Below, piece by piece: positions 3,557-57,184 of a DNA stretch of 64,000 nt. Location of the stretch: positions 36,764 to 100,763 of the forward strand of contig JAZDIN010000025.1 of the NCBI GenBank assembly GCA_043804895.1. Reading direction: 5' to 3'. This DNA comes from Candidatus Altiarchaeota archaeon. Lineage in GTDB: Archaea > Altiarchaeota > Altiarchaeia > IMC4 > SCGC-AAA252-I15. The position numbers were made by a program, and so were the translations under genes. The first letter of the stretch is position 1; the number at the start of each line of letters is the position of its first letter. The notes below the pieces were generated by a model. That model saw nothing but the letters and a program-made list of their open reading frames with translations. It had not been told where the DNA came from and ran no database searches.

Positions 3557-3630
3557 TGCGACTGCCGGGATTTGAACCCAGGTCGCGAGATTGGCAACCT
3601 CGAGTGATAGCCAGACTACACTACAGTCGC
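3557..3630 (-). tRNA. tRNA-Gly (anticodon GCC)
   Basis: Manual cloverleaf fold: acceptor GCGACTG/CAGTCGC, D-arm GTGT-AGTCTGGCTA-TCAC, anticodon stem CGAGG/TCTCG with loop TTGCCAA (anticodon GCC), V-loop CGAC, T-arm CTGGG-TTCAAAT-CCCGG, discriminator A. No encoded CCA. An AT-rich TATA-like box lies upstream (3643-3670). Confidence 0.8.
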
Positions 3631-3661: not shown

Positions 3662-4966
3662 TTAAATATACTCGTTTTTGAGCAGGTGTTTAACTGCTTC
3701 GTGTAGGTTTTTGAACGTGTAGTCTGGTTTGACATCGTATTTGCCGTCTCTGCAGGCGTGGCCTGTTTTCACGCCAACGGTCTTTATTCCCGCGTTTTTG
3801 CCGAGTTTTATGTCTCTTGTCGAGTCTCCGATTATGTACGATTTTTTCAGGTCTATGTTGAACCTTCTAGCTGCCTCCCTTATCATCCCCGTCTTCGGCT
3901 TACGGCATTCGCAGTCTGTCTTGTATCTTCGATTTTCCCCGTTGTATCCTCTATCCGGGTGGTGGGGGCACCAGTAGATTGCATCTAGTTTTGCGCCTTC
4001 CTTGCCAAGGAGGGTTTCCATCTTCTTATGGACCTCCTCAACATCTTTGAAGGTGCAGAGGCCTCTTGCCACGACCGGCTGGTTTGTTACTACGATAGCA
4101 AGGTGTCCTGATTCGTTTATCCTTCTTATCGCCTCTACCGAGCCTGGGATGAGTTCGAAGTTTATGGCTTCGTTGAGGAGGTGTCTTTCCACGTTTATGA
4201 CTCCGTCTCTATCAAGAAAGAATGCAGGCCTCTTTTTCTCTAGGTTGTATTTTCTTGGCAGTCCCCTTGTGTAGTCCCTCCTCACCTGCCTCAGCCTTTC
4301 AGGGGTCCCCATGTCCTTTATGTATTCCGGCGTGTTGTATCCGAATACTCTTTCCTTTGCCTTAATCATCCTTGGGAACACTTCCCTGTAAAGGTCTGAT
4401 TTTCCCCTTCTTGGTATATGCCTGAGTACTCTCTCAGATAGAACGTGAACTCCGGCGTTGACAAGGTTAGTGTAGAATCTGCCATTCTGCATTGGTTTCC
4501 GGTGGAAGGCCGTTATCCTACACCGTGAATCCATTTCCAGGAGGTCTGAGTCATTTGGGTGGTTGTTCGGGTGTATTGTTAGCGTGGCGTTGGCTTTTTT
4601 TGCCTTGTGGAATTCCACAAGTTTTTTCAGGTTCATGTCCACCATTACGTCGCCGTTGAGGAGGATGAAGTATCCTTTGATTTTTCCTTCAATCAGTCTA
4701 AGGCAGCCTGCAGACCCAAGTGGTTTGTCTTCGATGGAGTATTCGATTCTGGCTTTGAATCCCCTCCCGTCTCCGAAGTGGTCCTCTATCCTCCCGGACA
4801 CGTGGCCTGTGCAGAGTATTATGTCCTTGAACCCGTATCTTGTGAGCAGTCTTATCTGGTGTTCTAGTAGTGGCTTACCACCCACTTCGATCATAGGTTT
4901 CGGGGTTTTTTCAGTCAGTTTCCCGAGTCTTTCACCTCTGCCGCCTGCGAGTATTACTGCCTTCAT
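3662..4966 (-). CDS. bifunctional sugar-1-phosphate nucleotidyltransferase (HddC-like) fused to a D,D-heptose-1,7-bisphosphate phosphatase (GmhB-like HAD)
   Basis: The N-terminal half begins MKAVILAGGRGERLG...KPM..VGGKPLL, an NTP-transferase fold. The C-terminal half carries FFLDRDGVIN (HAD motif I) and ...CECRKPKTGM... (the GmhB histidinol-phosphatase-family signature with a Zn-binding Cys pair). Total 434 aa. Confidence 0.65.
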   Translation of the reverse strand: MKAVILAGGRGERLGKLTEKTPKPMIEVGGKPLLEHQIRLLTRYGFKDIILCTGHVSGRIEDHFGDGRGFKARIEYSIEDKPLGSAGCLRLIEGKIKGYFILLNGDVMVDMNLKKLVEFHKAKKANATLTIHPNNHPNDSDLLEMDSRCRITAFHRKPMQNGRFYTNLVNAGVHVLSERVLRHIPRRGKSDLYREVFPRMIKAKERVFGYNTPEYIKDMGTPERLRQVRRDYTRGLPRKYNLEKKRPAFFLDRDGVINVERHLLNEAINFELIPGSVEAIRRINESGHLAIVVTNQPVVARGLCTFKDVEEVHKKMETLLGKEGAKLDAIYWCPHHPDRGYNGENRRYKTDCECRKPKTGMIREAARRFNIDLKKSYIIGDSTRDIKLGKNAGIKTVGVKTGHACRDGKYDVKPDYTFKNLHEAVKHLLKNEYI

Positions 4967-5002
4967 CTTTGGTAGTGATTTAATATTATAAGATAATATC
5001 TC

Positions 5003-6004
5003 TTGGAGGTTGAGATGATAAGTCTACTTGCTGTTTTGGCGGTCTCGTTTGCGTTCACTTACCTGACTGTCCCCTGGTTCATTCCGCGGCTTTTGAAGGC
5101 TAAGATAGCAGGCAGGGACATGAACAAGCAGGGCAACATTGTTGTTCCTGAGATGGGCGGTTTCGCCATCATAGGCGGCTTTTTGGTCGGGGTGCTGTTC
5201 GCCATCGCCCTCACCACATTCAATGTGGTTGGCGTGGAGATGAACCTCACATACGTCCTGGCTTGTCTGTCAACCGTCCTCCTCATGGCATTGATAGGGG
5301 TCATAGATGACCTCCTACTCTTGGACCAGCGCGTTAAGGCAATCCTACCTGTCTTCGCAGCGTTGCCTTTGGTTGCAGTCAGCGCTGGGGTTCAATCGAT
5401 GGAACTCCCTATTTTCGGCGTGGTCGACTTCGGTATACTCTACCCGCTCATCGTAATACCTATCGCAATCACAGGGGCATCCAATGCGACTAACATGCTC
5501 GCCGGGTTCAACGGGCTTGAGGCCGGGTTGGGGATTGTCATGTGCTCGACCGTCGGGTTGGTGGCCTACAGTCTAGGTCGTGTCGAGGCTGTTGTCATCG
5601 TGTTCGCGATGCTTGGCGCCCTTTTGGCGTTCCTCAGGTACAATTGGTACCCTGCCAGGATCCTCATAGGCGATGTCGGGACTTTGAGCATCGGGGCTGT
5701 CGTCGCCTCGTCCGTGATTGTCGGCAACATAGAGAAGGTCGGCATCATACTGATAGCTCCATTCTTCCTCGAGCTTTACCTTAAGGCAAGAAGCAGGTTT
5801 AAGGCGCAATCATGGTGCGAGCTTAAGGGTGGCAGGCTCCTCTGCCCTAAGTTGAGCGAGGTTTATGGCATTGGTCGGCTTGTAATGTATATCAACGGGG
5901 GGGTATCGGAGAGGAAGCTTGTGCTGAGCATCATAGCGTTCGAGTGTCTCTTCGCATTACTTGCGTTGTATTCGTTTTCTGGGGTTTTATTGGCTACCAT
6001 ATGA
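5003..6004 (+). CDS. UDP-HexNAc:polyprenyl-phosphate HexNAc-1-phosphate transferase (MraY/WecA/AglH family)
   Basis: Polytopic membrane protein with the ASNATNMLAGFNGLEAG and VIDD motifs of the glycosyltransferase-4 (GPT) family. Confidence 0.7.
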   Translation: MEVEMISLLAVLAVSFAFTYLTVPWFIPRLLKAKIAGRDMNKQGNIVVPEMGGFAIIGGFLVGVLFAIALTTFNVVGVEMNLTYVLACLSTVLLMALIGVIDDLLLLDQRVKAILPVFAALPLVAVSAGVQSMELPIFGVVDFGILYPLIVIPIAITGASNATNMLAGFNGLEAGLGIVMCSTVGLVAYSLGRVEAVVIVFAMLGALLAFLRYNWYPARILIGDVGTLSIGAVVASSVIVGNIEKVGIILIAPFFLELYLKARSRFKAQSWCELKGGRLLCPKLSEVYGIGRLVMYINGGVSERKLVLSIIAFECLFALLALYSFSGVLLATI

Positions 6005-7125
6005 TGAAAGTCTGCATGGTTTCAAAGCACTTCCTCCCCTACTCTGGGGGTTTGGAGGTGAGGGTTCTGGAGCTGGCAAGGTGGCTTGTCGGCAAGGGAG
6101 AGAAGGTTCTGGTTTTGACCACTCACGAGCCCAGAACCAAGTCATCAGAAGTTGTTGACGGCGTTGATGTGAGCAGGTCGAAGGTCTGGTTCAGTCTGTT
6201 CAACGGGCCATTCTCCCCAGGAGTGCTTCTTGACCTGTTAGAAAGAGAATATGACATTATTGACGTGAACCTTCCCGACCCTGTGGGTAGCGTCTGGGCT
6301 TACATCGCTTCTGTCATCAGGGGTAAGCCTCTATTCGTAACTTACCATGCCGACATATTGAAGGACGGGATAATCTTCCTACCTCTTAAAATAATATACG
6401 GCCCACTACACTGGATTCTGTTGCGGCGTGCTGTCAGAATCTTCGTAACATCCCCGAACTACGCACAGTCCTCGGCGGTGCTTTCTGGATTCATGGCCAA
6501 GGTCGTGGTCGCTCCAAGCTTCGTGGACCTTAAGAGGTACAATCCCTCGGTTGACAACTCAAAGGTCAGGGAGAAAATGGGTCTTTCAGGCAGGAAAGTT
6601 GTGTTGTTCGTAGGCAGGCTCGTGGAGTACAAGGGTTTAGATTACCTCGTCGAGGCAGCTGGAATGTTGAGCGATGCGGTTTTCGTGATTGTCGGCGACG
6701 GTCCCCTGAGAGGCAGACTGGAAAGGAAGGTATTGGCGTCTGGTGTCAAAAACGTACTCCTCGCAGGCCATGTCGGTGATGGCGAGCTTTCTGGCTACTA
6801 CGGTGCTTGCGACGTCTTCGTCCTGCCTTCTGTCACGCGGCAGGAGGCGTTCGGCCTAGTCCTTGTTGAGGCGATGGCGTGCGGCAAACCCGTCGTCTCA
6901 ACGAACTTCTCAGGGATGCCCTATGTCGTCGACGGCGGCGGCCTCCTGGTGGAACCCAGAGACGCTGTTGCATTAGCTGAGGCATTGGGCAAGATACTTG
7001 CGGACAGTGCCCTGGCATCTGACCTGGCGGAGAAGGGCGTTAAGAGGGTCAGGGATTTCTTTGCAAGGGATGTCGTGTGCTCTAAGATTAGTGAAATATA
7101 TAAGTCTTCTGTTCGTAAGGGATAA
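6001..7125 (+). CDS. GT4-family (GT-B, group 1) glycosyltransferase
   Basis: N-terminus MMKVCMVSKHFLPYSGGLE and a C-terminal EAFGLVLVEAMACGKPVVSTNFSGMPYVV...GLLVEP EX7E-type motif. The ATG at 6001 was chosen over the 5944 extension, which overlaps the upstream gene. Confidence 0.75.
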   Translation: MMKVCMVSKHFLPYSGGLEVRVLELARWLVGKGEKVLVLTTHEPRTKSSEVVDGVDVSRSKVWFSLFNGPFSPGVLLDLLEREYDIIDVNLPDPVGSVWAYIASVIRGKPLFVTYHADILKDGIIFLPLKIIYGPLHWILLRRAVRIFVTSPNYAQSSAVLSGFMAKVVVAPSFVDLKRYNPSVDNSKVREKMGLSGRKVVLFVGRLVEYKGLDYLVEAAGMLSDAVFVIVGDGPLRGRLERKVLASGVKNVLLAGHVGDGELSGYYGACDVFVLPSVTRQEAFGLVLVEAMACGKPVVSTNFSGMPYVVDGGGLLVEPRDAVALAEALGKILADSALASDLAEKGVKRVRDFFARDVVCSKISEIYKSSVRKG

Positions 7126-7128
7126 CCG

Positions 7129-8139
7129 ATGGTCATACACACTCGCGCCCCTGTCAGGATAAGTTTCGGAGGCGGCGGAACCGACGTTTCACCATATACT
7201 GAAGAACATGGTGGATGCGTCGTCAGCGCCGCAATAAACAAGTACGCATCGGGTAGTGTGGAGTTGAGGAAGGACAGGGAAATCCACCTGAAAGACAGCC
7301 ACACCAAAGGTTTGACATTCAAGTCCACTGATGACATAAAATACGGGACTCCACTCGACCTCCTTGCCGCAGTCGTCAAGAACATGCACTCCACTAAGGA
7401 AGGCCTCAACCTTAGGCTGCGTGGCGACGTGCCTCCAAGAAGCGGACTCGGGTCCTCGGCTTCGGCGTTCATAGCGCTGATAGGATTGTTCAATCACATG
7501 CGAAGGGAGTCGAGGATGACGGACTACGAGATAGCGGAGCTAGCGTACAACCTCGAACGCGAGGAACTCCACAACAAAGGCGGACGCCAGGACCAGTACG
7601 CGTCAGTGTTTGGGGGCATCAACTACATCGAGTTCCGCGGCCACGATTTCGTGAGGGTTAATCCAGTCCGGATGAGGAGGGCTCACCATCTTGAGCTTGA
7701 GAAAAACCTTGTACTCGTCCACATCATGGAACGCAGCAAATCAGGTGACATAATCTCAGACCAGATAGACTCCTATGTGAAGGGGAAGAAGGAAGTTGTG
7801 GCGGCTCTCCACAAAGTCAAAGCCCTAGCGGAGGAAACCCACCACTCCCTCAGAAAAGGAGACCTCAACCGCTTCGGCGAGCTCCTGCACGAAGGATGGG
7901 TTGAGAAGAAAAAGTTCAGCCCGATGATGAGCAACGAACACATAGACCGGCTGTACGAGAAGGCCCGCAAGCACGGCGCAATCGGGGGGAAGATAGGCGG
8001 AGCCGGCGGCGGAGGCCACATGATACTCTACTGCGAATCAGGCAGGGAGGAAGAAGTCGCGAAGGTCTTCTCAGACGCTGGCTCGACAGTGAGAAGTTTC
8101 AGCTTTGACATGCACGGGCTTCAGACCTGGGAGGTGTGA
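7129..8139 (+). CDS. hddA: GHMP-family sugar kinase, D-glycero-alpha-D-manno-heptose-7-phosphate kinase (HddA)-like
   Basis: MVIHTRAPVRISFGGGGTDVSPY closely resembles the HddA N-terminus. The GHMP motif PPRSGLGSSASAF and a C-terminal GGKIGGAGGGG are also present. Confidence 0.6.
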   Translation: MVIHTRAPVRISFGGGGTDVSPYTEEHGGCVVSAAINKYASGSVELRKDREIHLKDSHTKGLTFKSTDDIKYGTPLDLLAAVVKNMHSTKEGLNLRLRGDVPPRSGLGSSASAFIALIGLFNHMRRESRMTDYEIAELAYNLEREELHNKGGRQDQYASVFGGINYIEFRGHDFVRVNPVRMRRAHHLELEKNLVLVHIMERSKSGDIISDQIDSYVKGKKEVVAALHKVKALAEETHHSLRKGDLNRFGELLHEGWVEKKKFSPMMSNEHIDRLYEKARKHGAIGGKIGGAGGGGHMILYCESGREEEVAKVFSDAGSTVRSFSFDMHGLQTWEV

Positions 8140-9302
8140 GTTTGAGACTCGGCTACGTCAGCCAGTACTTCACCAGAGAGTACCGCGGCCCAGTCACTAA
8201 CCTCCTTATTGAGCTTTCGAAGAAGGTTGACGTCGTCAACTACTCCTCAAAAGAAAGGCATGCCCAATACTACTCCGGCGGCGTCCACGCCATGGATTCC
8301 GAGAAAATCGGCGACCACCTCAGCCTGCGCAGGTATGAGGTTGGCTTGAAGTTGTCTGGTGTTCTCTTTCCGAAGAATCTCACCCCACTCATCTCGCAGG
8401 ACAAGCTGGACATTATACAGTCTGAAGAATACTATCAGCCTGCGTCGCACATCGCATTCAAACATGCGCGGAAAAATGGCATACCATTTATATTCAACCA
8501 CCGTGGAAGCGAGGAGCGGAAAAGAACGCTGAAGGAGCGCGTTTTCTTCACTATGGCGAATCCAATGAGTAGAGGCCTTGTCGAAGGCTCAGACGCGATT
8601 GTGTGCATCTCTGAGGCAGGGAAGAAGGCGTTGTGTGTTGTATTCCCCAAGGCACAGGACAAAGTCCACGTAATACCGAATTCAATAGACCCGCTATTAT
8701 TCGACGGAGCAAATGGTCGCTCGTTCAGGTATGAATACAGGATACCTGAAGCAAGCCCGCTCCTCCTATGTGTCGCCCGCCTACACTTCCAAAAGAGGAT
8801 AGACCTCCTAATCAGGACATTCGCTGAGGTGAAGAAACAGTCTCCTGATTCAGTCCTTTGCGTCGTAGGTCCGTGGTTTGATGAGGAGAAGAGGAAGGTC
8901 GATTCACTAATATCAAAGTTGAGGGTCGATGACGTGGTATTCACAGGACCTATACCAAACGACAACGTCAAGGACGCCTACGCGGCAGCCGACGTCGTCG
9001 CCATGACATCAGAATACGAACCGTTCGGCTACTGCCTCCTCGAGGCTATGTGCCTTTCCAAACCGGTTGTGGCATTCAACATAGGGGCGGTACCGGAGAT
9101 AATAGAAGATGGCGTCAGCGGCTATCACATCCCATTTGCGGACACCAAAGGGTTGGGTATGAAAATCTCAACCCTCCTCAACGACAAGAAACTCTCAAAG
9201 AAGATGGGCAAGGAAGGTCTAAGGCGAGTGAACGAGAAGTTCAGCCTGAGCGACAACTCCAAACGACTGATCAAGCTTTACGAGAGAATGGTGAAAAGAT
9301 AA
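8136..9302 (+). CDS. GT4-family glycosyltransferase
   Basis: C-terminal TSEYEPFGYCLLEAMCLSKPVVAFNIGAVPEII.DGVSGY motif; GT-B two-domain size. Confidence 0.7.
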   Translation: MSLRLGYVSQYFTREYRGPVTNLLIELSKKVDVVNYSSKERHAQYYSGGVHAMDSEKIGDHLSLRRYEVGLKLSGVLFPKNLTPLISQDKLDIIQSEEYYQPASHIAFKHARKNGIPFIFNHRGSEERKRTLKERVFFTMANPMSRGLVEGSDAIVCISEAGKKALCVVFPKAQDKVHVIPNSIDPLLFDGANGRSFRYEYRIPEASPLLLCVARLHFQKRIDLLIRTFAEVKKQSPDSVLCVVGPWFDEEKRKVDSLISKLRVDDVVFTGPIPNDNVKDAYAAADVVAMTSEYEPFGYCLLEAMCLSKPVVAFNIGAVPEIIEDGVSGYHIPFADTKGLGMKISTLLNDKKLSKKMGKEGLRRVNEKFSLSDNSKRLIKLYERMVKR

Positions 9303-10849
9303 TGGCAGATGAGATATCCCTGAAGGACGTGATGCTGAAGGCAAGCGTCACAATGATGGCAATCATGGTAGCCTCAAGATTCCTAGGTTACTTATTCCAC
9401 CTAATATTCGTCAGGTCATTCCCCCAAGAAGATTACGGCACATTCATCTTCGTCTGGTCCATGGGCCTCTTCCTGTGCGGTCTCATACCCAACATACCTG
9501 CTGCCATGGGCCGTTACGTCGCATTCTACCGCGGCGGAAAAGACAGTAAGGGGTTGGAGTCTACAATATCCACCGGCCTACTACTCAACACCGCTCTTTT
9601 AATCCTGGCTTTGGCCATCACCTCCACTATTTACCTGTCTGGATTATACTCATTCGGCATCAAAAACCATCCATCGTTCGCCTTCATGTTATCAGCCATG
9701 ATACTGACCTCAGTGAGTTGCCTCTTTGGAGGCATACTCACCGGCCACCGAAGGCCGGAGGTCTCGTCGTTCTTCAACTTCCTACAGAACCTGCTTAGAA
9801 TATCAGCTGTTGTCTTAGCGGCACTGCTTTTGGCGTCCCTATGGGGTGTCATGGTCCTTGTGGCATTCTCATTCCTTCTTTCCACAATGCTCCTCATTAT
9901 ATACGAGCACAGGACCTACGGCTTCGGTCGCTCATTCGACGCTGGCATTGCGAAGAAACTCATCGGTTTCGGGTTTTTCAGCATCATCCACGTGACCTCA
10001 AACAACATGCTCTCCTGGGCTAACATATTCCTCCTGCAGTTCTTCCTAAGTTCGGCAGTCGTTGCGGTCTACAACGTCGCATGGCTTGCATCGACAGTCA
10101 ATTTGCTCTTCTTCACAGCTGTGCTTCAGATATTCTCCCCCGTGGTGACTGAGCTGTTCGGTGCCAAGAAAAGTGAAAGGATATCCTACATCACCTCCTA
10201 CCTCATTGAATCATTCTTCCTCCTGTTCCTACCCATTTTCCTCGCGGTGTTTATTTTCGCTCGTGAAATCCTTGTCCTGTTCGTAACTTCAGACTACCTC
10301 CAGGCAGCTGACCCCCTTCGAATACTCTCATTAAACGCGTTCTTCTTCGGCATAGCGATGCTATTCATAGAGCTTATCAACGCGGAAGGCAGGCCTGAGC
10401 TTAACGCCAGGAACATCGGATTCGGTGCACTGTTGAATTTGGCCCTGAACCTGTTGTTAATACCTCCGTTAGGGATGTTTGGCTCAGCGTTGGCGACGCT
10501 CGCATCATCAGTCGCAATACTGCTTCTGTCATACGGTCACGTGAGGGGCGTAGTGCGACTGTCATACTCTCCCCTCAGGATATGCAAACTATTCGCATCC
10601 TCGATTCTAACCATCCTCTCCATCTCTGTCATCAAGGAGGCTGTTGAGGCCTCGGTAATATCACTCGTCTTGTCGTCAGTATCCCTCGTCCTCATCTACT
10701 GCCTGCTGGTTGTCGCATTGAAGTCCCTACGGCAGGAGGACGTGATGCTGGCATCGACTCTTATGGACAAGTTCAAGATCCCGACCGTACTCAGACATGG
10801 TATCTCACGCCTCCTAGGATACGGCGTCTACTCTAAGACTTCCTCGTAA
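9302..10849 (+). CDS. oligosaccharide/polysaccharide flippase (Wzx-like, MOP superfamily)
   Basis: Roughly 12-14 TM helices across 515 aa, with typical polysaccharide-biosynthesis-protein topology. The start was taken at ATG 9302 (MADEISLKDV) rather than the overlapping 9050 extension. Confidence 0.6.
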   Translation: MADEISLKDVMLKASVTMMAIMVASRFLGYLFHLIFVRSFPQEDYGTFIFVWSMGLFLCGLIPNIPAAMGRYVAFYRGGKDSKGLESTISTGLLLNTALLILALAITSTIYLSGLYSFGIKNHPSFAFMLSAMILTSVSCLFGGILTGHRRPEVSSFFNFLQNLLRISAVVLAALLLASLWGVMVLVAFSFLLSTMLLIIYEHRTYGFGRSFDAGIAKKLIGFGFFSIIHVTSNNMLSWANIFLLQFFLSSAVVAVYNVAWLASTVNLLFFTAVLQIFSPVVTELFGAKKSERISYITSYLIESFFLLFLPIFLAVFIFAREILVLFVTSDYLQAADPLRILSLNAFFFGIAMLFIELINAEGRPELNARNIGFGALLNLALNLLLIPPLGMFGSALATLASSVAILLLSYGHVRGVVRLSYSPLRICKLFASSILTILSISVIKEAVEASVISLVLSSVSLVLIYCLLVVALKSLRQEDVMLASTLMDKFKIPTVLRHGISRLLGYGVYSKTSS

Positions 10850-11955
10850 AGCTGCATAGTCTTTGCTGCTATACTATCCCAAGAATGCGGCAGAGCGCTC
10901 TTTCTGGCTTTCGCGCTCATCCTGCCTAGGAGGTCATCATCCAGCACGTGTCTGACCTTCTCTGCAATGTCCTTTCCCTCCCTCTCTATGAAGAATCCGT
11001 TCTCCCCCTCCCTTATCAAATCCTCAGTGCCGTTAACGAGGGTCGCAAGGACTGGAAGGCCTGATGCAGCCGCCTCGAGCGTGGCCATGCTAAACCCCTC
11101 ATATGCGGTCGGGAACACGAATAGGTCGGCTGATGCATAGTACTTCCTGGCTTCACTTGAGTGTCCTGTGAACACGACTCTATCACTGACGCCCAATTCA
11201 GCAGCGCGTCTCTCATAAGGTTGTCTTTTGTCGCCGCCGACTGCGACCAGTTTCACGTCCTTCGGCAGGTGTGGTAAGGCCTCGATTACGTGCCTCAGGC
11301 CCTTTCTCTTGAACTCCCATCCAACGAATAGTAGGACGATGTCGTTTTCATCGATTCCGTGCATTCTCCTGACGTCAGTCCTGTATAACTTCCTGTTCTC
11401 TGGTGTGAACTCCTCTATGTTGACACCGTTTGGTATCAGCCTAATGTACTCATCAGGGACCCCATAGTAATGTTGTACCTCCCTGAGGTTGCCCTTTGAC
11501 AAGGCAATCAACTTCTTAAAGTTCCTGTGCGTTAGGTTGTACTTCTCTATTTGTAAGACGATGTTTGACGCGGGCTCGAAGGTCTTCAGCACCCTATACC
11601 CGAAGCCCCTCTCCCTCTTGAACTGTTCGACCGCAGCCTTATGGCAGCTTGGCGCCTTAAGTATGTTCTGGTAAAGCGACTCAGCCCCCTGACTGTGTAT
11701 GATGTCGAATTTATGTTCCTTGTCGAGCTTCCTTGCGAACACCGTGTTCTTCACTGCATTGAGGCCGATTAGCATATAATACGGCCATCGTGGTATCGGG
11801 ATCTTGTGGAATGTCACGCCGTCTATGTCGTGTTTCTGCCATGTAGTCAGGACGTGGACTTCATTGTCTTTCGCGAACCTTTCAGCCAGTTCGACAGCGT
11901 ATTTCGCGACCGCGCCCTGCTTGAAAAAGCTTGCAGTCAGGAAAAGTATTTTCAC
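10828..11955 (-). CDS. GT4-family glycosyltransferase
   Basis: MKILFLTASFF... N-terminus; C-terminal YEGFSMATLEAAASGLPVLATLVNGTEDLIREGENGFF motif. Confidence 0.75.
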   Translation of the reverse strand: MKILFLTASFFKQGAVAKYAVELAERFAKDNEVHVLTTWQKHDIDGVTFHKIPIPRWPYYMLIGLNAVKNTVFARKLDKEHKFDIIHSQGAESLYQNILKAPSCHKAAVEQFKRERGFGYRVLKTFEPASNIVLQIEKYNLTHRNFKKLIALSKGNLREVQHYYGVPDEYIRLIPNGVNIEEFTPENRKLYRTDVRRMHGIDENDIVLLFVGWEFKRKGLRHVIEALPHLPKDVKLVAVGGDKRQPYERRAAELGVSDRVVFTGHSSEARKYYASADLFVFPTAYEGFSMATLEAAASGLPVLATLVNGTEDLIREGENGFFIEREGKDIAEKVRHVLDDDLLGRMSAKARKSALPHSWDSIAAKTMQLYEEVLE

Positions 11956-13847
11956 CCCCCAGCCTCCTCCATGAAAATCTCATGCCATGTCTTAAAGCAG
12001 TGTAACAGCCCCCAAAGCCTACGACCGTTCTCGTATTCTGTGTCTTTCGCCCTGGATTTCATGTAATGTTCAAGCAACCTCATTGTATTGGCTTTCCTGA
12101 AGTACTCTGTTCTGTCAATGAACTTCAAGACATTATCGAAGTCTGCCTTCAGTTCCTCCTTCAGCCACGCATCGAATGGTATCTCGAACCCGTGTTTTTT
12201 CCGCCTGACTATGCTCTTTGGGAGAATGTCTTTCACAGCCTTCCTGAAGATCATCTTATCCTTGCCTGCAATGCCGACCTTCATATAGGATGGTATCGTG
12301 TAAGCGTGTTCCACGAGCAGTTGGTCCAAGAGCGGAGACCTAGCTTCTACAGAATGTGCCATCGTCATCTTATCTACCTTCATTAGGAAGTCCTCAGCAA
12401 GCCATGTCTTCACGTCAAGATAAAGTATCCTGTTCAGGAAATCATTGCCTTTCGACTCCTTTGCATGTGATATGTGGGGCTCAACAGTCAGCTCATATGG
12501 ATTCGACTCGAAGATATCACGAGCTAGGACATCTTTCTTATACTCCTCTGTGAGCACCCTCGAGCCCCTGATGTACGTCCCCTTTAAGTCTCTCGCACTC
12601 CTGATAACATTTCTAACGTCCCTTGAGTCAGCCATGTTATCCATGAGGTCGCCGACGTGTTTATTGTCAGCAGCAAGGTTCAAAAGACGTGAAGTGAGCG
12701 GGATGTTGAATAGGAACTCCCGCTTTCTAACCCACCTGTACTTCGAATACCCCCCATACAGCTCATCGCCTCCGTCGCCTGTGAGATACACCGTCGCATG
12801 CTTCTTCGCGTATTTGCTCATAAGGTATGTCGGGACAATAGCATAGTCAGCAATCGGTTCGTCAATGTGCCATACAATATCCCTAAACGATTTCATCGCA
12901 TCACCGCCAATCACGATTTCAGTATGCTCGGTGTTGAATTTTTCAGCGACTATGCGCGAGTAGGGTCGCTCGTCAAGTCCGCCCCATTCAAACCCGATGG
13001 ATATAGTCTTCACAGTCTCTTCCCCTAGTCTAGAAGCCAAAGCCACAATGGTGCTGGAGTCAAGCCCGCCAGAGAGGTATACGCCAAGCGGGACGTCGCT
13101 CACCAGCCTCATAGCGACCGCATCCTCAAGGAGCATCATCATCCCAGATATGAACTGTCGTTCGCTCTTGGCCACATTACTCTCAAGGTCAATATCCCAA
13201 TACTTTTCTAACATGACCCTACCTTCCCTCACAGTCATATGGTGTCCAGGCCTCAGCTTGTGCACCCCATCGAACATAGTCAGAGGTGCTGGGACGTACT
13301 GGTGGGTCATGTAGGCGTTCAAACCTTCCAATGAAACCTTCCTCACGAATCCAGGATACCTAAGCATCGCCTTTATCTCAGAGGCGAATATGAAATTGCC
13401 TTCCACTAGGGAGTAGTAAAGCGGCTTCTTCCCAAGTCTGTCCCTGGCCAGGAAAAGGCGTTCCCCCTTCCTGTCCCATATTGCGAATGCGAACATGCCT
13501 CTTAGTTTTTTCACGCAGTCTTTGCCGTATTCCTCGAAGCTGTGTATTATGACTTCCGTGTCTGTGTCGGTCCTGAACCTGTGTCCTTTGGCTTCTAGGT
13601 CTGCTCGCAGACTCTTGAAGTTGTATATCTCCCCGTTGTAGACTATCCATATGTCTCCGTCCTCGTTGCACATCGGCTGGCGGCCTCGTTCGCTCAGGTC
13701 TATGATGCTCAACCTAGTGTGGCCGAGGCTGATTCCCGCATCAGTGTATACTCCAGAATCATCCGGCCCACGATGCCTGAGAGATTCTCCCATCCTCTCA
13801 AGAAGTCCTCTGTCATCAACACCCAGTATGCCGAATATCCCGCACAT
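11952..13847 (-). CDS. asnB: asparagine synthetase B-type glutamine amidotransferase (AsnB/WbpS/PseA-like), copy 1
   Basis: MCGIFGILG Ntn-amidotransferase start, the SGGLDSS PP-loop, 631 aa. Confidence 0.8.
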   Translation of the reverse strand: MCGIFGILGVDDRGLLERMGESLRHRGPDDSGVYTDAGISLGHTRLSIIDLSERGRQPMCNEDGDIWIVYNGEIYNFKSLRADLEAKGHRFRTDTDTEVIIHSFEEYGKDCVKKLRGMFAFAIWDRKGERLFLARDRLGKKPLYYSLVEGNFIFASEIKAMLRYPGFVRKVSLEGLNAYMTHQYVPAPLTMFDGVHKLRPGHHMTVREGRVMLEKYWDIDLESNVAKSERQFISGMMMLLEDAVAMRLVSDVPLGVYLSGGLDSSTIVALASRLGEETVKTISIGFEWGGLDERPYSRIVAEKFNTEHTEIVIGGDAMKSFRDIVWHIDEPIADYAIVPTYLMSKYAKKHATVYLTGDGGDELYGGYSKYRWVRKREFLFNIPLTSRLLNLAADNKHVGDLMDNMADSRDVRNVIRSARDLKGTYIRGSRVLTEEYKKDVLARDIFESNPYELTVEPHISHAKESKGNDFLNRILYLDVKTWLAEDFLMKVDKMTMAHSVEARSPLLDQLLVEHAYTIPSYMKVGIAGKDKMIFRKAVKDILPKSIVRRKKHGFEIPFDAWLKEELKADFDNVLKFIDRTEYFRKANTMRLLEHYMKSRAKDTEYENGRRLWGLLHCFKTWHEIFMEEAGG

Positions 13848-16269: not shown

Positions 16270-18144
16270 CTACAGGCTCCCTGGTGGCATTCCATCGATG
16301 TACATCCTCTGCCACAGTTCCAGTGTGATGAGGGCCCATATCTGGTGCCCCCTCCACAGGTTTTTTGGTTTTCCGAGGAGTGCTTGGACCTTATCGGGCC
16401 TAAGTATCCCTCGTCTTCTCACATTTTCCTTTGATAATATGTCATGCGCAAACTCGCGCAGTTCGTTGAGCATCCAGTGGTGCATCGGCACCCGGAATCC
16501 CTGCTTTTTGCGTGCAAGTATCTCCTTAGGTAGCCTATCCCTCATAAGCCTCTTGAGTATGTACTTGTCTGTGGAGCCCCTCAGCTTCATATGGGCTGGA
16601 AGCGACATGGTGTATTCGAGGAGTTTGTGGTCTAGGAGGGGTACGCGGCCCTCTATCGCCCACGCCATGCTAGTCTTATCAAGTTTCATGAGTAGGTCCT
16701 CTGGGACCCACGTCTTCAAGTCAACGTATTGTAAGCGGCTGAGGAACGTCGGCATGTTCCGTGCCCTGAAGCACTGGCGTACTGTGCTGAGGGAGTCGAC
16801 GCTGGCGTTCGCCTTCTGGAACTCCCCAGTATAATACTCACCCCTCTCCTCCTCGTCTAGGACGTGGCCCTGACCCAAGTAGACCTTTTCCTCGTCTGCA
16901 GCTGAGATATACCTTAAGTATCTTTTACCTCGTGTGAATCCGGGGATATTTTTTATCGCGTATGGTATGACATTATCCTTCATCACAGGGGGCAGGATAT
17001 TGCGCATGCGGTCGCCTACGTTGAGTAGTTTGTATGTTCTGTAGCCTGCGAATGCCTCGTCTCCGCCTTCGCCCGTGAGTACTACCGTCACCTTCCTTTT
17101 CGCCCGTTCAGACAGGAAATATGTCGGCACAGCCGCAGGGTCGCCGATGGGTTCATCCAGATGCCATATCACCAATGGAAGGGACTTCAGCGCATGATGG
17201 GAGTCGATAATGATCTCATGATGGTCTGTTCTATAGTGGTCTGCCACAGTCTTCGCGTATTTCACCTCATCAACGTCCTCGTACCCGAATCCTACGCTAA
17301 ACGTCTTCACAGGTTCAGGCATCATCGACGTCATCATGTCAACCATTGTGCTTGAGTCAAGGCCGCCTGAGAGATAGGCGCCGAGTGACACGTCGCTCAT
17401 CAGGCGCATCCTCACGCAATCCGAAAGTAGCGCATCAAGTTCTTTAAGGCACTGGCTTTCGCTGACATCATGCAGTTGAGCCTTAAGGTCCCAGTATTGG
17501 GTGACGTTGGTCTTGCCACCCTCGCGCACTAGCATGTGGCCTGGCTGTAGTTTCATCACCCCCTCAAGTGCAGTTTGCATTCCTGGGACATACTGGAGGG
17601 TGAGGTAATAGTGGATTGCCTTCTTGTTCAACGCCGGATTTAAGCCATCATACTCTAAAAGCGCCTTCACTTCCGAGGCGAACAGGAACGCTCCATCCTT
17701 TTCAAAGTAGTAGACTGGTTTTATGCCTAACCTGTCTCTTGCTAGGACGAGCCTCTTCTTGGACGCATCCCAGAGGGCGATTGCGAACATCCCCCTCAGG
17801 TGTTCGACAAAAAGTGGACCATGTTCCTCATACAGGTGCACGATGACCTCCGTGTCGGTGTTTGTCCTGAACTTGTGGCCTTCAGCCTCGAGTTCTCTCC
17901 TCAGTTCAAGGTAGTTGTAAATCTCCCCATTGTATATCGTGACCACATCACCTTCCTCGTTGAATATCGGCTGCTTCCCTGTTGAAAGGTCTATGATGGA
18001 AAGGCGCAGGTGGCCGAGCATCACGTCTGAATCATGGTATTCGCCGCAGTCATCTGGGCCCCTATGGTGGACTGTATCCATCATATCCCTGAGCAGTCCC
18101 CTGTCCTCAAAACCCATTATCCCCACAATACCACACACCGTCAA
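16270..18144 (-). CDS. asnB: asparagine synthetase B-type glutamine amidotransferase, copy 2
   Basis: MTVCGIVGIMG, SGGLDSS, 624 aa; a paralog of 11952..13847. Confidence 0.8.
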   Translation of the reverse strand: MTVCGIVGIMGFEDRGLLRDMMDTVHHRGPDDCGEYHDSDVMLGHLRLSIIDLSTGKQPIFNEEGDVVTIYNGEIYNYLELRRELEAEGHKFRTNTDTEVIVHLYEEHGPLFVEHLRGMFAIALWDASKKRLVLARDRLGIKPVYYFEKDGAFLFASEVKALLEYDGLNPALNKKAIHYYLTLQYVPGMQTALEGVMKLQPGHMLVREGGKTNVTQYWDLKAQLHDVSESQCLKELDALLSDCVRMRLMSDVSLGAYLSGGLDSSTMVDMMTSMMPEPVKTFSVGFGYEDVDEVKYAKTVADHYRTDHHEIIIDSHHALKSLPLVIWHLDEPIGDPAAVPTYFLSERAKRKVTVVLTGEGGDEAFAGYRTYKLLNVGDRMRNILPPVMKDNVIPYAIKNIPGFTRGKRYLRYISAADEEKVYLGQGHVLDEEERGEYYTGEFQKANASVDSLSTVRQCFRARNMPTFLSRLQYVDLKTWVPEDLLMKLDKTSMAWAIEGRVPLLDHKLLEYTMSLPAHMKLRGSTDKYILKRLMRDRLPKEILARKKQGFRVPMHHWMLNELREFAHDILSKENVRRRGILRPDKVQALLGKPKNLWRGHQIWALITLELWQRMYIDGMPPGSL

Positions 18145-20082: not shown

Positions 20083-20135
20083 AATGCCTTTAACTTCTCT
20101 TTAAAACCCTTAACTGTTAAATAATTTAAAGTAAA

Positions 20136-21134: not shown

Positions 21135-21213
21135 TGGACGAATGACTGTCCTCGCACGAAGACAACCCCCGGGAAGAATATTAAGGGATAATATACAAGT
21201 GTTGTGAAAGAAG

Positions 21214-22434: not shown

Positions 22435-22435
22435 C

Positions 22436-24219: not shown

Positions 24220-24225
24220 AAAAAC

Positions 24226-47230: not shown

Positions 47231-47384
47231 AACCAAGATATTATTTTCCCCCGTTAAAATATAGCGGATAGGGAATACTTTGGAATTTCGGTTTTCCCTA
47301 TCCAATATATCTAATAATCCTGGGGTTTGGTGAATTCTATTCTATGAAAGTTTAATTCTCAGGATTATTCGCTATAGCCAAAGT

Positions 47385-48097: not shown

Positions 48098-48774
48098 CCC
48101 AAACCCAGCCTATATCTGTACAACCTATACAGGTGTCTGAGGTAGTTTATGTACTCCCCTAAGTTCAGTTTGCTTTCGCCAACCCTGCGGTCGCGGAAAA
48201 TGTAAGGCACCTCAACGACTCTCCCATACTTCCCCTTTACCAATATCTCAAGCCCAATCTTGAAGCCGACTGCATCCAACTTTACACCCTCAATAACCTC
48301 CCTTCTGAGGAAGAAATATCCTGACATGCAGTCTCTCACACCAGTTAGAGGTCTTGCAAGCATTTTCGCCCCCCTTGAGGTGAGTCGCCTCATAATAGGC
48401 CAGTTCTCGACTCCTCCTCCTTCAATGTATCGGCTTGCGAACACCATCCCCGCATCCCCATTCAGGATTGGCTGTATAAGTTTCGGAATAAGTCTCGGGG
48501 GGTGGCTGAAGTCAGCGTCCATGACACCGATTATCTCACCTGATGATGCATTGAGCCCGTCAAGTATAGCCGAAGACAATCCCAGCTTACCTTTCCTGTG
48601 GATGACCTTAATCCCGTATGTGACAGCTAGCTGGTCCGCCAACTCCCCCGTCCCATCCGGGCTTCCATCATCTACCACGACGACTTCGACATCTGCATTC
48701 GAGAGTATGTCCTCTACAAGCCCCTTAAGGTTCTTCACTTCATTGTATGTTGGCACGACGACTGAAGCACGCAT
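48094..48774 (-). CDS. GT2-family polyprenyl-phosphate glycosyltransferase (ArnC/Dpm1-like, soluble type)
   Basis: [21 protein letters not shown]...[12 protein letters not shown]...[12 protein letters not shown]. Confidence 0.75.
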
Positions 48775-48830
48775 TTTTATGGTTAATGCATATAATTAGT
48801 GGAATATATTCGGTTTTGAGGTGGTTTCAG

Positions 48831-49487
48831 GTGAAATTCTTCATAGACACAGCCAATGTGGATGAGATAAGGACTGCCAAGTCCTGGGGCATACTAGACG
48901 GGGTCACAACCAATCCGACGCTACTTGCTAAGGAGGAATGCGACTTCAAGACAGCAGCAAAGGAGATACTATCCCTCGTCGAAGGCCCAGTAAGCCTTGA
49001 GGCGGTAAGCGCAGACGCTGAGGGGATGGTGAAGGAGGCCAGGGAACTCTCCAAGCTCGGCAAAAACGTCGTGGTTAAGATACCCATGACCCCCGAGGGG
49101 ATTAAGGCAGTGCAGAAACTAAGTTCAGAGGGAGTGAAGACGAATGTCACGCTCCTCTTCAGCGCCAACCAAGCCCTCATAGCTGCGAAAGCAGGGGCAA
49201 CCTACGTAAGCCCGTTCATAGGCCGCCTTGACGACCAAGGATGGGATGGTGTTCAACTCATAGCCGACATTCTTGAAATATACTCAAACTTTGGGTTCAA
49301 GACCGAGGTCATAGCTGCGAGCATCAGGGACCCGGTTCATGTGGCAGACTGCGCGAGGCTCGGCTGCCATGTCGCGACAGTGCCCTTCGGAGTCCTAAAG
49401 AAGATGTTCACACACTCTCTCACTGACGTCGGAGTACAGAAGTTCCTTGAGGACTGGAAGAAGGTCGAAGGCAGGTGCAAAAAATAG
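48831..49487 (+). CDS. tal: transaldolase (Tal/FSA family, short archaeal type)
   Basis: [14 protein letters not shown]...GVTTNPTLL...VVVKIPMT is the transaldolase signature. A GTG start at 48831 after GAGGTG is likely; the track gives an upstream TTG-type start. Confidence 0.75.
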
Positions 49488-49488
49488 G

Positions 49489-50046
49489 ATGGACAGAATA
49501 TCAAAGGAGATTGAGGAAAGCGTTGTAGTGAAGAGAACGCTCAAAGTAAAGGACATCGAGGAAGCAACCAAGCTGATAGTGGACGCACTCAAATCAAAGC
49601 GCAAGATTCTCCTTTGCGGAAACGGTGGAAGCGCCGCTGACTGCCAGCACATCGCAGGCGAATTCGTAGGCAGGTTCAAGAAGGAGCGGCAGGCCCTGCC
49701 TGCAATAGCGCTCTCGACTGACACGTCAATCCTCACCGCCCTCACCAACGACTACGGCGGAGACATAATATTCTCACGGCAGGTCGAGGCCCTCGGGAAT
49801 GAGGGGGATGTGTTGGTTGCGATATCAACCAGTGGAACCTCCTCCAACATACTCAAAGCAGTCGAGGCAGGAAGGAAGAAGGGGATGAAGGTCGTCGGAT
49901 TCACAGGAGCCAAAGGCCAGAAACTGAAAAGCCTCTCAGACGCCTGTATCATGGTCGGCTCAGACGACACCCCACGGATACAGGAAGCCCACATCACCGC
50001 AGCACACATAATATGCGGACTGGTCGAGGAAAAAGTTGGTAACTAA
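49489..50046 (+). CDS. gmhA: sedoheptulose-7-phosphate isomerase (GmhA, SIS domain)
   Basis: KILLCGNGGSAADCQHIAGEFVGRF...LSTDTSILTALTNDYG...GDVLVAISTSGTSSNIL matches GmhA motifs closely. Confidence 0.8.
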   Translation: MDRISKEIEESVVVKRTLKVKDIEEATKLIVDALKSKRKILLCGNGGSAADCQHIAGEFVGRFKKERQALPAIALSTDTSILTALTNDYGGDIIFSRQVEALGNEGDVLVAISTSGTSSNILKAVEAGRKKGMKVVGFTGAKGQKLKSLSDACIMVGSDDTPRIQEAHITAAHIICGLVEEKVGN

Positions 50047-57142: not shown

Positions 57143-57184
57143 CTTTTGGGTTATAAGATAGTCTGTCCCGTTATTTAATATAAG

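Follow-up and report, generated by a model that had tools for sequence, protein, structure and literature searches.

HldE, in which a PfkB-type kinase is joined to a nucleotidyltransferase (NT) of the cytidylyltransferase fold, is a precedent for a multifunctional protein of the heptose pathway. Its two steps are not consecutive, however, and belong to the beta/ADP route. The canonical heptose pathway has four steps (PMC10680097, PMC7705670), and heptose-pathway enzymes are often found fused into multifunctional proteins (PMC11461863, PMC7705670). HisB, which provides the closest paralogous HAD-IIIA domain, is also a bifunctional fusion and also carries a zinc cap (PMC9798254), but its phosphatase is paired with IGP dehydratase. 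In FKP (L-fucokinase/L-fucose-1-P guanylyltransferase), a GDP-sugar pyrophosphorylase domain and a further step from the same route of sugar activation are likewise placed in one polypeptide, and the GHMP kinase domain of FKP is related to HddA. In a full-text literature search, the sole fusions mentioned were those of the HldE type, GmhA-GmhB in M. tuberculosis CDC1551 and HisB, and no description of an HddC-GmhB or NT-HAD heptose fusion was found.

Here we analyse such a fusion gene in a 64-kb stretch of DNA (the window) from a metagenome-assembled genome of Candidatus Altiarchaeota. It differs from HldE in that a GlmU/RmlA-fold NT is combined with a phosphatase, for what are predicted to be consecutive steps of a route whose kinase is of the GHMP (alpha-specific) type. 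Whereas FKP joins a kinase to an NT in a salvage route, the protein described here joins a phosphatase to an NT in a putative de novo route.

A single gene for nucleotidyltransferase and phosphatase

The fusion is encoded by an uninterrupted ORF on the minus strand, which starts with ATG at 4966-4964 and ends with a TAA stop at 3664-3662. The N-terminus of the protein is MKAVILAGGRGERLG. Its layout is as follows:

3662..4966, minus strand: whole fusion gene, NT plus HAD-IIIA phosphatase, 434 aa (ORF list)
4268..4966, minus strand: sugar-1-phosphate nucleotidyltransferase domain, residues 1-233 (Pfam PF00483 at 2-233)
4229..4267, minus strand: short, conserved inter-domain linker, residues 234-246 (near-invariant residues, pLDDT)
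3674..4228, minus strand: HAD-IIIA GmhB-type phosphatase domain, residues 247-431 (NCBIfam, alignment, Foldseek)

Pfam places NTP_transferase (PF00483) on residues 2-233 with an E-value of 3e-35, and the C-terminal half gives Hydrolase_like, HAD_2 and Hydrolase matches (E 1e-16 to 8e-8). The catalytic motifs are complete in both halves. A deposited protein, P0001 (Candidatus Altiarchaeota archaeon, 'HAD-IIIA family hydrolase'), is 100% identical to the 434-aa fusion. The preliminary description of this DNA had proposed a single protein of this length, and the single ORF, the two Pfam domains and the identical deposited protein bear this out. The two motifs it quoted, FFLDRDGVIN and CECRKPK, are both present in the ORF, and the domain scans with Pfam and NCBIfam return NTP_transferase at the N-terminus and a GmhB-type HAD domain at the C-terminus. 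The fusion is not an HldE-type protein, as Pfam shows only NTP_transferase and HAD in it and the kinase of the window is of the GHMP type.

The AlphaFold2 model of the fusion is confident along its full length (pLDDT 94.5, pTM 0.92). The linker has high pLDDT as well, without a low-confidence spacer, and five residues across the domain junction (V228, D231, G235, N241 and R246) are near-invariant in the homologue alignment. When the model was compared with the PDB by Foldseek, no chain spanning both domains was found.

The phosphatase half is of the GmhB type

The HAD motifs of the fusion (D252-R-D254-G-V, T294, K356 and G380-D381...D385) align to D11/D13, T53, K111 and D136 of E. coli GmhB (2gmw/3l8e), and these core residues are invariant or nearly so in an alignment of 71 homologues. 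The zinc cap consists of C333-P-H335 and C352-E-C354, separated by a 16-residue spacer. The fusion shares the HAD-IIIA fold, the DxD, T, K and GDxxxD motifs, the CxH...CxC cap and the Arg-Lys pair after CxC (Arg355-Lys356, aligned to Arg110-Lys111 of E. coli GmhB) with the GmhB enzymes of E. coli (2GMW/3L8E), B. bronchiseptica (3L8H) and B. pseudomallei (4PNH). Foldseek superimposes the model on 3l8e with a TM-score of 0.90 and an rmsd of 2.3 A, at ~34% identity. Unlike the fused domain, GmhB is a stand-alone protein, and the cap spacer of the fusion is four residues longer than the 12 of E. coli GmhB.

The best NCBIfam models for this half are those of GmhB (PRK08942, 7e-50; TIGR00213, 7e-39), whose curated cut-offs are narrowly missed with 169.0 vs 178 and 133.4 vs 149.6 bits, respectively; chance cannot account for matches of this strength. 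The cut-off of NF050049 is not reached either (103.7 vs 250), but the broader models TIGR01656 (134 vs 84) and TIGR01662, HAD-IIIA (112 vs 44.6), are passed. Of the two models whose names specify an anomer, that for the phosphatase of the beta-anomer scores higher (169 bits) than that for the alpha-anomer (104 bits).

The zinc loop had been regarded as a GmhB-specific feature. However, the cap is also present in E. coli HisB-N, and only the length of the CxH...CxC spacer differs, with 12 residues in E. coli GmhB and 5 in HisB-N (PMC9798254). Using the loop as a test of the GmhB assignment, as the preliminary description suggested, was therefore poorly framed. In the fusion family, the spacer is 16 residues long in 70 of 71 members. 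Checked against HisB directly, the C-terminal half is far nearer to GmhB: 169 vs 64.5 bits in NCBIfam (TIGR01261 hisB_Nterm, cut-off 140), and 4.7e-33 vs 2.7e-12 (2fpr) in the PDB. In addition, the phosphatase is joined to an NT, not to IGPD, and the pathway context differs from that of HisB.

The nucleotidyltransferase half

In homologue alignments, the NT motifs of the fusion (G8-G-R-G-E-R13-L, K23, D106 and D218) show no or almost no variation. In the sequence alignment with GMPPB/VTC1, an invariant His/Asp-rich family motif, HPN(D/N)HPxDSDL (H132-P-N-N-H-P-N-D-S-D-L-L-E144 in the fusion), occupies the place of VTKVEEPSKYGVV in GMPPB, a stretch which we assign to the region that binds the sugar. 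In YpHddC, Glu80 of the motif E-x-x-P-L-G-T-G-G-A is the ligand of guanine N1/N2, and uridylyltransferases have Gln at the equivalent site (PMC6981941). The corresponding motif in the fusion is E79-D-K-P-L-G-S-A-G, which ends in SAG where HddC has TGG. In the alignment of 71 sequences, E79 is conserved to at least 90%, and 63 of the 71 members have E at position -3 of PLG. An equivalent of E-x-x-PLG is also found in GDP-mannose pyrophosphorylases aligned to the fusion.

The short RmlA/GlmU-type NTP_transferase fold (TM 0.86 to HddC, 5xhw, by Foldseek with the AlphaFold2 model), the GxGxR loop and the guanine-binding Glu of ExxPLG are common to the fusion and HddC, as is the predicted pathway step. 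However, identity to HddC is only ~25%, the fusion carries the HPN(D/N)HPxDSDL motif and a phosphatase partner, and its NT is nearer to GMPPB/ManC-like and MurU-like models. The HddC equivalog NF049965 gives 83.3 bits against a cut-off of 300, whereas man1P_GTase_Rv (174 bits), MurU (128) and Arch_glmU (117) score higher, and the fold match to MurU has a TM-score of 0.89. The best PDB sequence match is 8x7s, annotated as UTP-glucose-1-P uridylyltransferase. The label “HddC-like” in the preliminary description is thus correct for the fold and for the Glu of ExxPLG (E79), but not in the sense of an HddC orthologue (83 vs 300 bits). Since the HddC threshold is missed and the models for mannose-1-P guanylyltransferase and MurU score higher, the specificity for both sugar and nucleotide is a prediction. 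This half would work like HddC, although it is not an orthologue by the curated threshold.

Pathway partners and glycan genes in the window

Genes for the remaining pathway steps and for glycan assembly are found in the same window:

4967..5015, intergenic: divergent region, ~50 bp, AT-rich, TTTAATATTATAAGATAATAT (sequence read)
5003..6004, plus strand: GT4-family polyprenyl-phosphate sugar-phosphate transferase, MraY/WecA/AglH-like (Pfam Glycos_transf_4, 1e-37)
5944..10849, plus strand: glycan-assembly genes around the kinase (Pfam)
5944-7125 and 8136-9302, plus strand: GT1/GT4-fold glycosyltransferases (Pfam Glycos_transf_1, 1e-38 and 1e-37)
7129..8139, plus strand: HddA-type heptose-7-phosphate kinase (NCBIfam, PDB)
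9050-10849, plus strand: Wzx/MATE-like flippase (Pfam Polysacc_synt/MatE)
48747..49487, plus strand: transaldolase/FSA-family gene (Pfam TAL_FSA, 2e-64)
49447..50046, plus strand: GmhA, sedoheptulose-7-phosphate isomerase, first committed step (TIGR00441)

For the kinase, HddA is the best NCBIfam model (214 bits over the full length, under the cut-off of 600), and heptose kinases in the PDB match along their full length (3k85, 2e-59; WcbL 4usk, 1e-54; 4n3o, 1e-48). GmhA passes the cut-off of TIGR00441 gmhA with 211.8 against 209.45 bits, and is matched by phosphoheptose isomerases in the PDB at 1e-54; its identity to E. coli GmhA is 43.7%. The transaldolase gene, which lies directly upstream of GmhA and overlaps it, is the likely source of sedoheptulose-7-phosphate. 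With kinase, GmhA and transaldolase in the window, a complete route from sedoheptulose-7-P to NDP-heptose is therefore present, which supports the preliminary description. The pathway genes are scattered, however, GmhA being 44 kb away from the fusion, and the HddA and GmhA of the window are only 35% and 31% identical to the corresponding proteins of a gene cassette in a second Altiarchaeote (see below). Because of this dispersal and low identity, the two can be paired with the fusion less confidently than their counterparts in relatives.

The GT4 phosphotransferase gene at 5003..6004 is divergent from the fusion gene, and its true start is probably the ATG at 5016. Its product is likely the initiating enzyme of a lipid-linked glycan, and the region 4967..5015 presumably contains putative archaeal TATA-type promoters for both genes. 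The glycosyltransferases and the flippase in 5944..10849 are candidate users of NDP-heptose; among the many glycosyltransferases of the window, none could be named as a heptosyltransferase.

Two further candidates were rejected. The genes 46160-47305 and 45280-46242 were considered as a DmhA/DmhB-like pair (GDP-heptose 4,6-dehydratase), but this is unsupported: in NCBIfam they match LegB and dTDP-glucose dehydratase best, and the gmd model, with a cut-off of 415, gives only 113. The mutase at 55874-57199, considered as a PMM feeding GDP-mannose, is an archaeal GlmM (432 vs 439). It is the sole mutase in the window, which thus contains no PMM.

The fused family and its conserved neighbourhood

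A search for the same fusion in other genomes yielded up to 2,974 clusters when sequences were grouped at 50% identity. Among bacteria and archaea, at least 565 species carry it, and homologues on Lawsonia and Rhizobium plasmids are included. The statement that the two enzymes are normally separate genes is accurate for characterised systems, e.g. C. jejuni (PMC10680097), but proteins with the fused form make up a very large family. The fusion is real, but it is no distinguishing rarity of this archaeon. Both domain orders occur in the family (P0149, for example, is HAD-NT), which argues that selection favours the physical linkage of the two activities. A third domain, which resembles P-loop kinases (PF00485), is present in most members, and in some the fusion includes an SDR or a glycosyltransferase (GT). 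No stand-alone homologue of this third domain was found in the window. No biochemical data on any member of the family were found in the literature searched. The names given by the sources are generic or conflicting: the commonest is 'HAD-IIIA family hydrolase', and others are 'histidinol-phosphate phosphatase family protein', 'mannose-1-phosphate guanylyltransferase / phosphomannomutase' and 'AglF' UDP-glucose pyrophosphorylase (P0033).

Of 80 loci from related genomes, 67 have an HddA-like kinase close to the fusion and 57 have a GmhA-like gene there; in the majority of loci, these genes follow immediately downstream. Among the loci that lack a partner, several have a contig end shortly past the fusion gene. 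The second Altiarchaeote has an intact SDR-fusion-GHMP-SIS-GT cassette, which also occurs in the Lawsonia and Rhizobium plasmids examined and in one viral contig. HddA and GmhA are the best classes for the kinase and SIS proteins of this cassette type, with scores below the cut-offs (159-179 vs 600 for GHMP, 111 vs 209 for SIS). The SDR frequently lies just before the fusion or is fused with it.

Proposed function and alternative explanations

The gene probably encodes a bifunctional enzyme that completes the synthesis of nucleotide-activated heptose by catalysing its last two steps. This reading is based on the architecture, the intact motifs, the fold matches to GmhB and HddC, the pathway genes and the conserved linkage in relatives. 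We infer the substrates, the anomer (from the type of kinase), the nucleotide (from Glu79) and the order of the reactions. Sedoheptulose-7-P, probably transaldolase-derived, would be converted to D-glycero-D-manno-heptose-7-P by GmhA, and the HddA-type kinase (7129-8139) would supply the alpha-1,7-bisphosphate substrate. The C-terminal HAD-IIIA domain would then take off the 7-phosphate via an aspartyl-phosphate intermediate, with Asp252 as the predicted nucleophile, Asp254 as acid/base, Thr294 and Lys356 binding the phosphate and Asp381 and Asp385 binding Mg2+, while the Cys333/His335/Cys352/Cys354 zinc cap would shape the substrate pocket. The NDP-heptose product may be passed on to the glycosyltransferases encoded around the fusion, in a large island of genes for a cell-surface glycan. 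Being fused, two consecutive activities are necessarily present in 1:1 stoichiometry and in the same place. True channelling of heptose-1-P, which the preliminary description took to be implied by the fusion, is possible.

The same two steps might be carried out with a nucleotide other than GTP, yielding ADP-, CDP-, UDP- or dTDP-heptose. The sub-threshold HddC score, the annotation of 8x7s and the name 'AglF' given to P0033 by one source would fit such a product, and so would the promiscuity of HldE-type heptose nucleotidyltransferases for CTP and UTP (PMC11461863) and the mutagenesis of YpHddC, in which base preference was not fixed by a single residue (PMC6981941). However, the guanine-ligand Glu is retained here and in most of the family, the GDP-mannose pyrophosphorylases have the same motif where uridylyltransferases have Gln, and insertions displace the corresponding Glu in the 8x7s alignment; we thus consider another nucleotide unlikely. 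A different sugar, i.e. another heptose isomer or a ketose-phosphate-derived aldose that passes through the same scheme of isomerase, C1 kinase, terminal phosphatase and NT, is suggested by the divergence of the cassette SIS and GHMP proteins from canonical GmhA and HddA, the invariant HPNDHPxDSDL motif at the VTKVEEPSKYGVV site of GMPPB, the longer zinc-cap loop and the SDR that often precedes or is fused to the fusion. This appears quite unlikely, as all four proteins consistently match heptose-pathway enzymes best and the GmhA of the window both passes its equivalog cut-off and adjoins a gene for a transaldolase, the maker of sedoheptulose-7-P.

Nothing direct speaks for a reversed order, in which the NT would act on heptose-1,7-bisphosphate and the HAD domain would remove the 7-phosphate from NDP-heptose-7-phosphate, although the rigidly packed architecture (pTM 0.92) and the family-specific changes in both pockets would permit it. 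In all characterised heptose pathways dephosphorylation comes first (PMC10680097, PMC7705670), and the HAD domain keeps the Arg355-Lys356 pair and the zinc cap found in GmhBs whose substrate is the free bisphosphate, which makes this order very improbable. We see hardly any chance that the two halves are unrelated (a GDP-mannose pyrophosphorylase with a general or histidinol-phosphate phosphatase) or that the fusion is an artefact. The top N-terminal NCBIfam match is indeed a mannose-1-P guanylyltransferase, some source names point to the same functions, and YpHddC itself was assayed with mannose-1-P as substrate (PMC6981941). Against this stand the low hisB_Nterm score, the spacer of 16 and not 5, the absence of a PMM from the window and the fact that most of the 80 genomes have HddA-like and GmhA-like genes linked to the fusion. 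A sequencing, assembly or frameshift artefact is ruled out because thousands of sequences retain the fused ORF; in hundreds of homologues from independent genomes, both domains likewise lie in one continuous ORF. Rather improbably, the NT-HAD fusions, most of them with the third P-loop domain, might be nucleotide-sugar synthases of a separate lineage that is uncharacterised in biochemical terms. They appear to have been transferred more than once among bacteria, archaea and mobile elements. Possibilities for such a lineage are another heptose or nucleotide, an NDP-heptose-7-P intermediate, or tunnelling of heptose-1-P between the rigidly packed sites.

Implications for the family and for archaeal glycans

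A bifunctional heptose enzyme does not overturn current understanding, as its chemistry and both folds are textbook. It would allow thousands of proteins with generic or conflicting names, including those encoded on plasmids of Rhizobium leguminosarum and of Lawsonia intracellularis, a pathogen of pigs, to be re-annotated as bifunctional heptose-bisphosphate phosphatase / heptose-1-P nucleotidyltransferase. Due to its two domain orders and confidently predicted packing, the family is also convenient for testing channelling by fused sugar-activation enzymes.

A heptose has been reported in the N-glycans of Thermoplasma (PMC11407970). In genomes, the fusion in combination with HddA and GmhA serves as a compact marker of NDP-heptose synthesis, and this marker predicts heptose-containing surface glycans in Altiarchaeota, several lineages of the DPANN type (Woesearchaeota, Iainarchaeum), Thermoplasmata and Methanosarcinales. 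If the NT-HAD proteins are a distinct lineage, they would represent an archaeal route that supplies heptose to surface glycans.

Domain architecture of the fusion protein

The preliminary description of this region proposed that an HddC-like nucleotidyltransferase (NT) is fused to a GmhB-like phosphatase. The fusion itself was confirmed. The ORF listing and the sequence agree on one continuous reading frame from ATG to TAA (window 3662-4966, minus strand), encoding 434 amino acids with the sequence quoted there, and searches with Pfam and NCBIfam recovered NTP_transferase as well as HAD-type/GmhB models with scores far beyond chance. In Pfam, NTP_transferase covers residues 2-233 (E 3e-35) and HAD-type models cover the C-terminal half. 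The top NCBIfam matches are a mannose-1-phosphate guanylyltransferase model for residues 2-263 (174 bits) and the GmhB models PRK08942 (169 bits, E 7e-50) and TIGR00213 (133 bits) for residues 246-431. A database entry from a Candidatus Altiarchaeota archaeon MAG (P0001), deposited merely as "HAD-IIIA family hydrolase", matches it at 100% identity.

An AlphaFold2 model built from 71 homologues reached a mean pLDDT of 94.5 and a pTM of 0.92, which for a two-domain chain would imply a fixed relative arrangement of the domains; between them lies a short, conserved linker (residues 234-246). Foldseek found no solved chain spanning both domains. The C-terminal half superposes on GmhB 3l8e (TM 0.90, 2.3 A), the N-terminal half on HddC 5xhw (TM 0.86) and MurU (TM 0.89).

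The C-terminal half can be aligned with E. coli GmhB at the level of single residues (2gmw/3l8e, E about 1e-32), and its catalytic residues are intact. D252 and D254 (the DxD nucleophile and acid/base), T294 and G380-D381...D385 are kept, R355-K356 align with R110-K111 of GmhB, and the zinc cap CxH...CxC is shared as C333, H335, C352 and C354. Every motif that marks GmhB was thus found, while the curated GmhB thresholds were narrowly missed (169 vs 178 and 133 vs 149.6 bits). The zinc cap had been regarded as GmhB-specific. This does not hold, since E. coli HisB-N bears the same cap and differs in the spacer alone, which has 5 residues there and 12 in E. coli GmhB (PMC9798254). In the fusion the spacer is 16 residues long, as in 70 of 71 family members. 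HisB-N was rejected as the identity of this half on the spacer (16 vs 5) and on the scores, GmhB being clearly ahead in both NCBIfam (169 vs 64.5 bits) and the PDB (4.7e-33 vs 2.7e-12).

The G8-G-x-G-x-R13 loop, K23, D106 and D218 are all retained in the N-terminal half. An invariant motif peculiar to the family, H132-P-N-(D/N)-H-P-x-D-S-D-L-x-E144, stands in the place of VTKVEEPSKYGVV in GMPPB. On the HddC equivalog the NT half scored only 83 bits against a threshold of 300, a clear failure; it is therefore an HddC analogue in the same superfamily and not an orthologue.

Heptose pathway genes in the window

The window is a very large archaeal glycan-biosynthesis island in which the remainder of the heptose route is encoded, so that the pathway is complete.

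Genes of the heptose route and the neighbour of the fusion gene
3662-4966 (-): NT-phosphatase fusion
5003-6004: GT4-family polyprenyl-phosphate sugar-phosphate transferase, divergent from the fusion gene
7129-8139: GHMP kinase, HddA as best family (214 bits over the full length, under the 600-bit equivalog cut-off)
48747-49487: transaldolase, directly upstream of GmhA and overlapping its gene
49447-50046: GmhA (TIGR00441, 211.8 against a curated threshold of 209.45, passed; PDB matches to 1e-54)

Sedoheptulose-7-phosphate is the product of transaldolase. The kinase matches solved heptose-7-phosphate kinases over their full length (3k85, 2e-59; WcbL, 1e-54; 4n3o, 1e-48) and sits between two GT1/GT4-fold glycosyltransferases, after which a flippase-like gene follows. 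GHMP kinases of the HddA type lead to the alpha-anomer, PfkB kinases being of the HldE type (PMC10680097, PMC7705670, PMC9798254). Since the window kinase is of the former type and not the latter, the alpha-anomer is the expected intermediate. Besides the fusion, no second GmhB, HddC or ManC homologue was found within the window, and its sole mutase is an archaeal GlmM.

Distribution and variants of the family

The fusion is not rare, contrary to what had been implied; searches of other genomes found it many times in archaea and bacteria. Both domains were present in all of the best 120 database matches (at least 492 bits; coverage 94-100%, mostly 98-100%), which came from archaea and many bacterial phyla. 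With one genome per species scanned, relatives occurred in at least 565 genomes; among the best 80 of these, nearly all match from residue 1-3 to about 425-434, with 47-58% identity. In a set of 1.84 billion representatives (50% identity), 2,974 proteins were found at E <= 1e-30; since closely related single-domain proteins may pass the same limit, the fused family numbers at most this many. Of the top 150, nearly every one is a full-length, single-stretch match. In a distance tree, bacterial and archaeal members are interleaved and the window protein stands beside that of a second Altiarchaeote. The window gene is a typical representative of its family, which is very large, carries generic or conflicting annotations and is apparently uncharacterised.

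Architecture variants (P, database proteins; L, related loci)
P0149, P0216, P0265: reversed order, HAD then NT
P0151: RmlD-like SDR, NT and HAD, 748 aa
P0153: GT4, NT and HAD, 904 aa
For example L003 10001-11869, L009, L013, L084 5977-7926 (proteins P0018, P0100, P0106): NT, HAD and a third domain

Two domain orders join the same two activities, which argues that selection favours their physical linkage, and the reversed order together with the SDR and GT fusions suggests repeated, independent fusion events around the heptose pathway. The third, C-terminal domain is a P-loop domain (PF00485, phosphoribulokinase/uridine-kinase family) found in 55 of 80 related loci, in proteins of about 620-650 aa. 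It is not simply the pathway kinase, because a neighbouring gene still encodes an HddA-like GHMP kinase. No homologue of this domain was found within the window.

Gene neighbourhood in relatives

The strongest functional evidence is the gene neighbourhood, which is conserved. Among the best 80 of at least 565 loci, an HddA-like kinase lies near the fusion in 67 and a GmhA-like gene in 57, several of the loci without them being on contigs that stop shortly past the fusion. Mostly the kinase and then the GmhA-like gene follow directly downstream. For the kinase and the SIS protein of the cassette type, the best classification is HddA and GmhA, respectively.

In the second Altiarchaeote (L081, 9042-14068) the cassette is compact and intact (SDR-fusion-GHMP-SIS-GT), whereas the heptose genes are dispersed in the window. 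Identity between the two genomes is 62% for the fusion, 35% for HddA and 31% for GmhA. The window HddA and GmhA are nearer to the canonical bacterial enzymes than their L081 counterparts, which suggests a separate origin or replacement.

The query was covered to at least 80% in 69 plasmid records, of which two loci were inspected for linkage. On Lawsonia intracellularis plasmid 1 (L083, 6001-8295) a GHMP kinase comes after the fusion; a Rhizobium leguminosarum plasmid (L084, 184-8903) carries SDR, fusion and GHMP kinase with SIS in the same cluster, and its operon also holds a GT2, a large hypothetical protein and an LPG_synthase_TM protein. In these cultured bacteria the plasmid-borne fusion and kinase are named merely "HAD-IIIA family hydrolase" and "GHMP kinase". 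The sole match among 2.9 million viral contigs (IMG/VR; L082, 5005-7818) is a predicted viral contig with an HddA-like, fusion, GmhA-like cassette, at 36% identity to the window protein.

Other genes of the window

A tRNA-Gly(GCC) gene (3557-3630, minus) sits some 30 bp past the fusion stop codon, and a Cas4/PD-(D/E)XK nuclease-like gene (1382-2161, plus) lies upstream of the glycan island. A second nucleotide-sugar branch (19306-26357, plus) contains an NTP_transferase, whose N-terminus we take to be RfbF-like, a 4,6-dehydratase-like SDR, a C-methyltransferase (Methyltransf_13/14) and a further SDR; on either side of a radical SAM gene (24226-25446) lie the two parts of a split transketolase (23362-24219 and 25443-26357). 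The branch looks like a pathway to a C-methylated or two-carbon-branched deoxysugar. One SPASM-type and three B12-binding radical SAM genes (34573-35637, 36621-38036, 38812-40251, 43078-44463) sit amid glycosyltransferases and methyltransferases, a density unusual for a glycan island. Two glutamine-hydrolysing asparagine-synthase paralogues within the glycosyltransferase cluster (11952-13847 and 16270-18144, both minus) may amidate sugar acids instead of making asparagine.

Divergent from the transaldolase-GmhA pair (47385-48774, minus) are a small GT2 (48094-48774) and two proteins of about 115-122 aa, one with weak EamA/TMEM234 matches (47385-47732), the other without a Pfam match (47729-48097). 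The nearby 4,6-dehydratase-like SDR (46160-47305, minus) and its adjacent SDR (45280-46242, minus) were rejected as GDP-heptose dehydratase/reductase, their best matches being LegB and dTDP-glucose dehydratase. A GT2 (41190-42182) adjoins an LPG_synthase_TM protein (40194-41201); as the two also occur together in the Rhizobium cassette, they may point to a route in which heptose is carried on polyprenyl phosphate. Two ORFs (52989-53975, plus, 328 aa; 54016-55500, plus, 494 aa) had no Pfam match at E <= 1e-5.

Functional interpretation

The best supported reading, and in our judgement a probable one, is that one protein performs the last two steps of NDP-heptose synthesis. It is predicted to work like GmhB plus HddC; as parts of one chain, the two activities come in equal dosage and stay close together. 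The functional interpretation in the preliminary description was largely right: the GmhB-type motifs, pathway genes and linkage agree with it. The points that did not hold up are the implied rarity, a GmhB-specific zinc loop and HddC orthology; the substrate channelling that it drew from the fusion is a possibility. Architecture, catalytic residues, folds, the complete route and the gene linkage are observed, and from there we infer the substrate, its anomer, the nucleotide and the order of reactions.

Use of a different nucleotide is unlikely. The NT half has E79-D-K-P-L-G-S-A-G, and of 71 homologues 63 share E79. Two hydrogen bonds link guanine N1/N2 to the Glu of E-x-x-P-L-G-T-G-G-A in Y. 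pseudotuberculosis HddC, and uridylyltransferases have Gln at this site (PMC6981941). An equivalent E-x-x-PLG motif also occurs in aligned GDP-mannose pyrophosphorylases. With the heptose genes in the window and in relatives, we give a different sugar still less credence. A reversed order of reactions, through NDP-heptose-7-phosphate, seems highly improbable, and with both domains so widely retained in one chain, unrelated halves or an artefactual fusion are the least probable of all.

Fusions in heptose pathways have precedents in HldE, isomerase/kinase/NT forms and GmhA-GmhB of M. tuberculosis CDC1551 (PMC11461863, PMC7705670). The protein does not resemble HldE, whose folds are different and whose two steps are non-consecutive. 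We found no published description of an NT-phosphatase fusion in the literature searched, though an earlier mention is possible. A heptose is already known from Thermoplasma N-glycans (PMC11407970), and the main value of the finding lies in better annotation and in predicting, for Altiarchaeota and other archaea, glycans that contain heptose.
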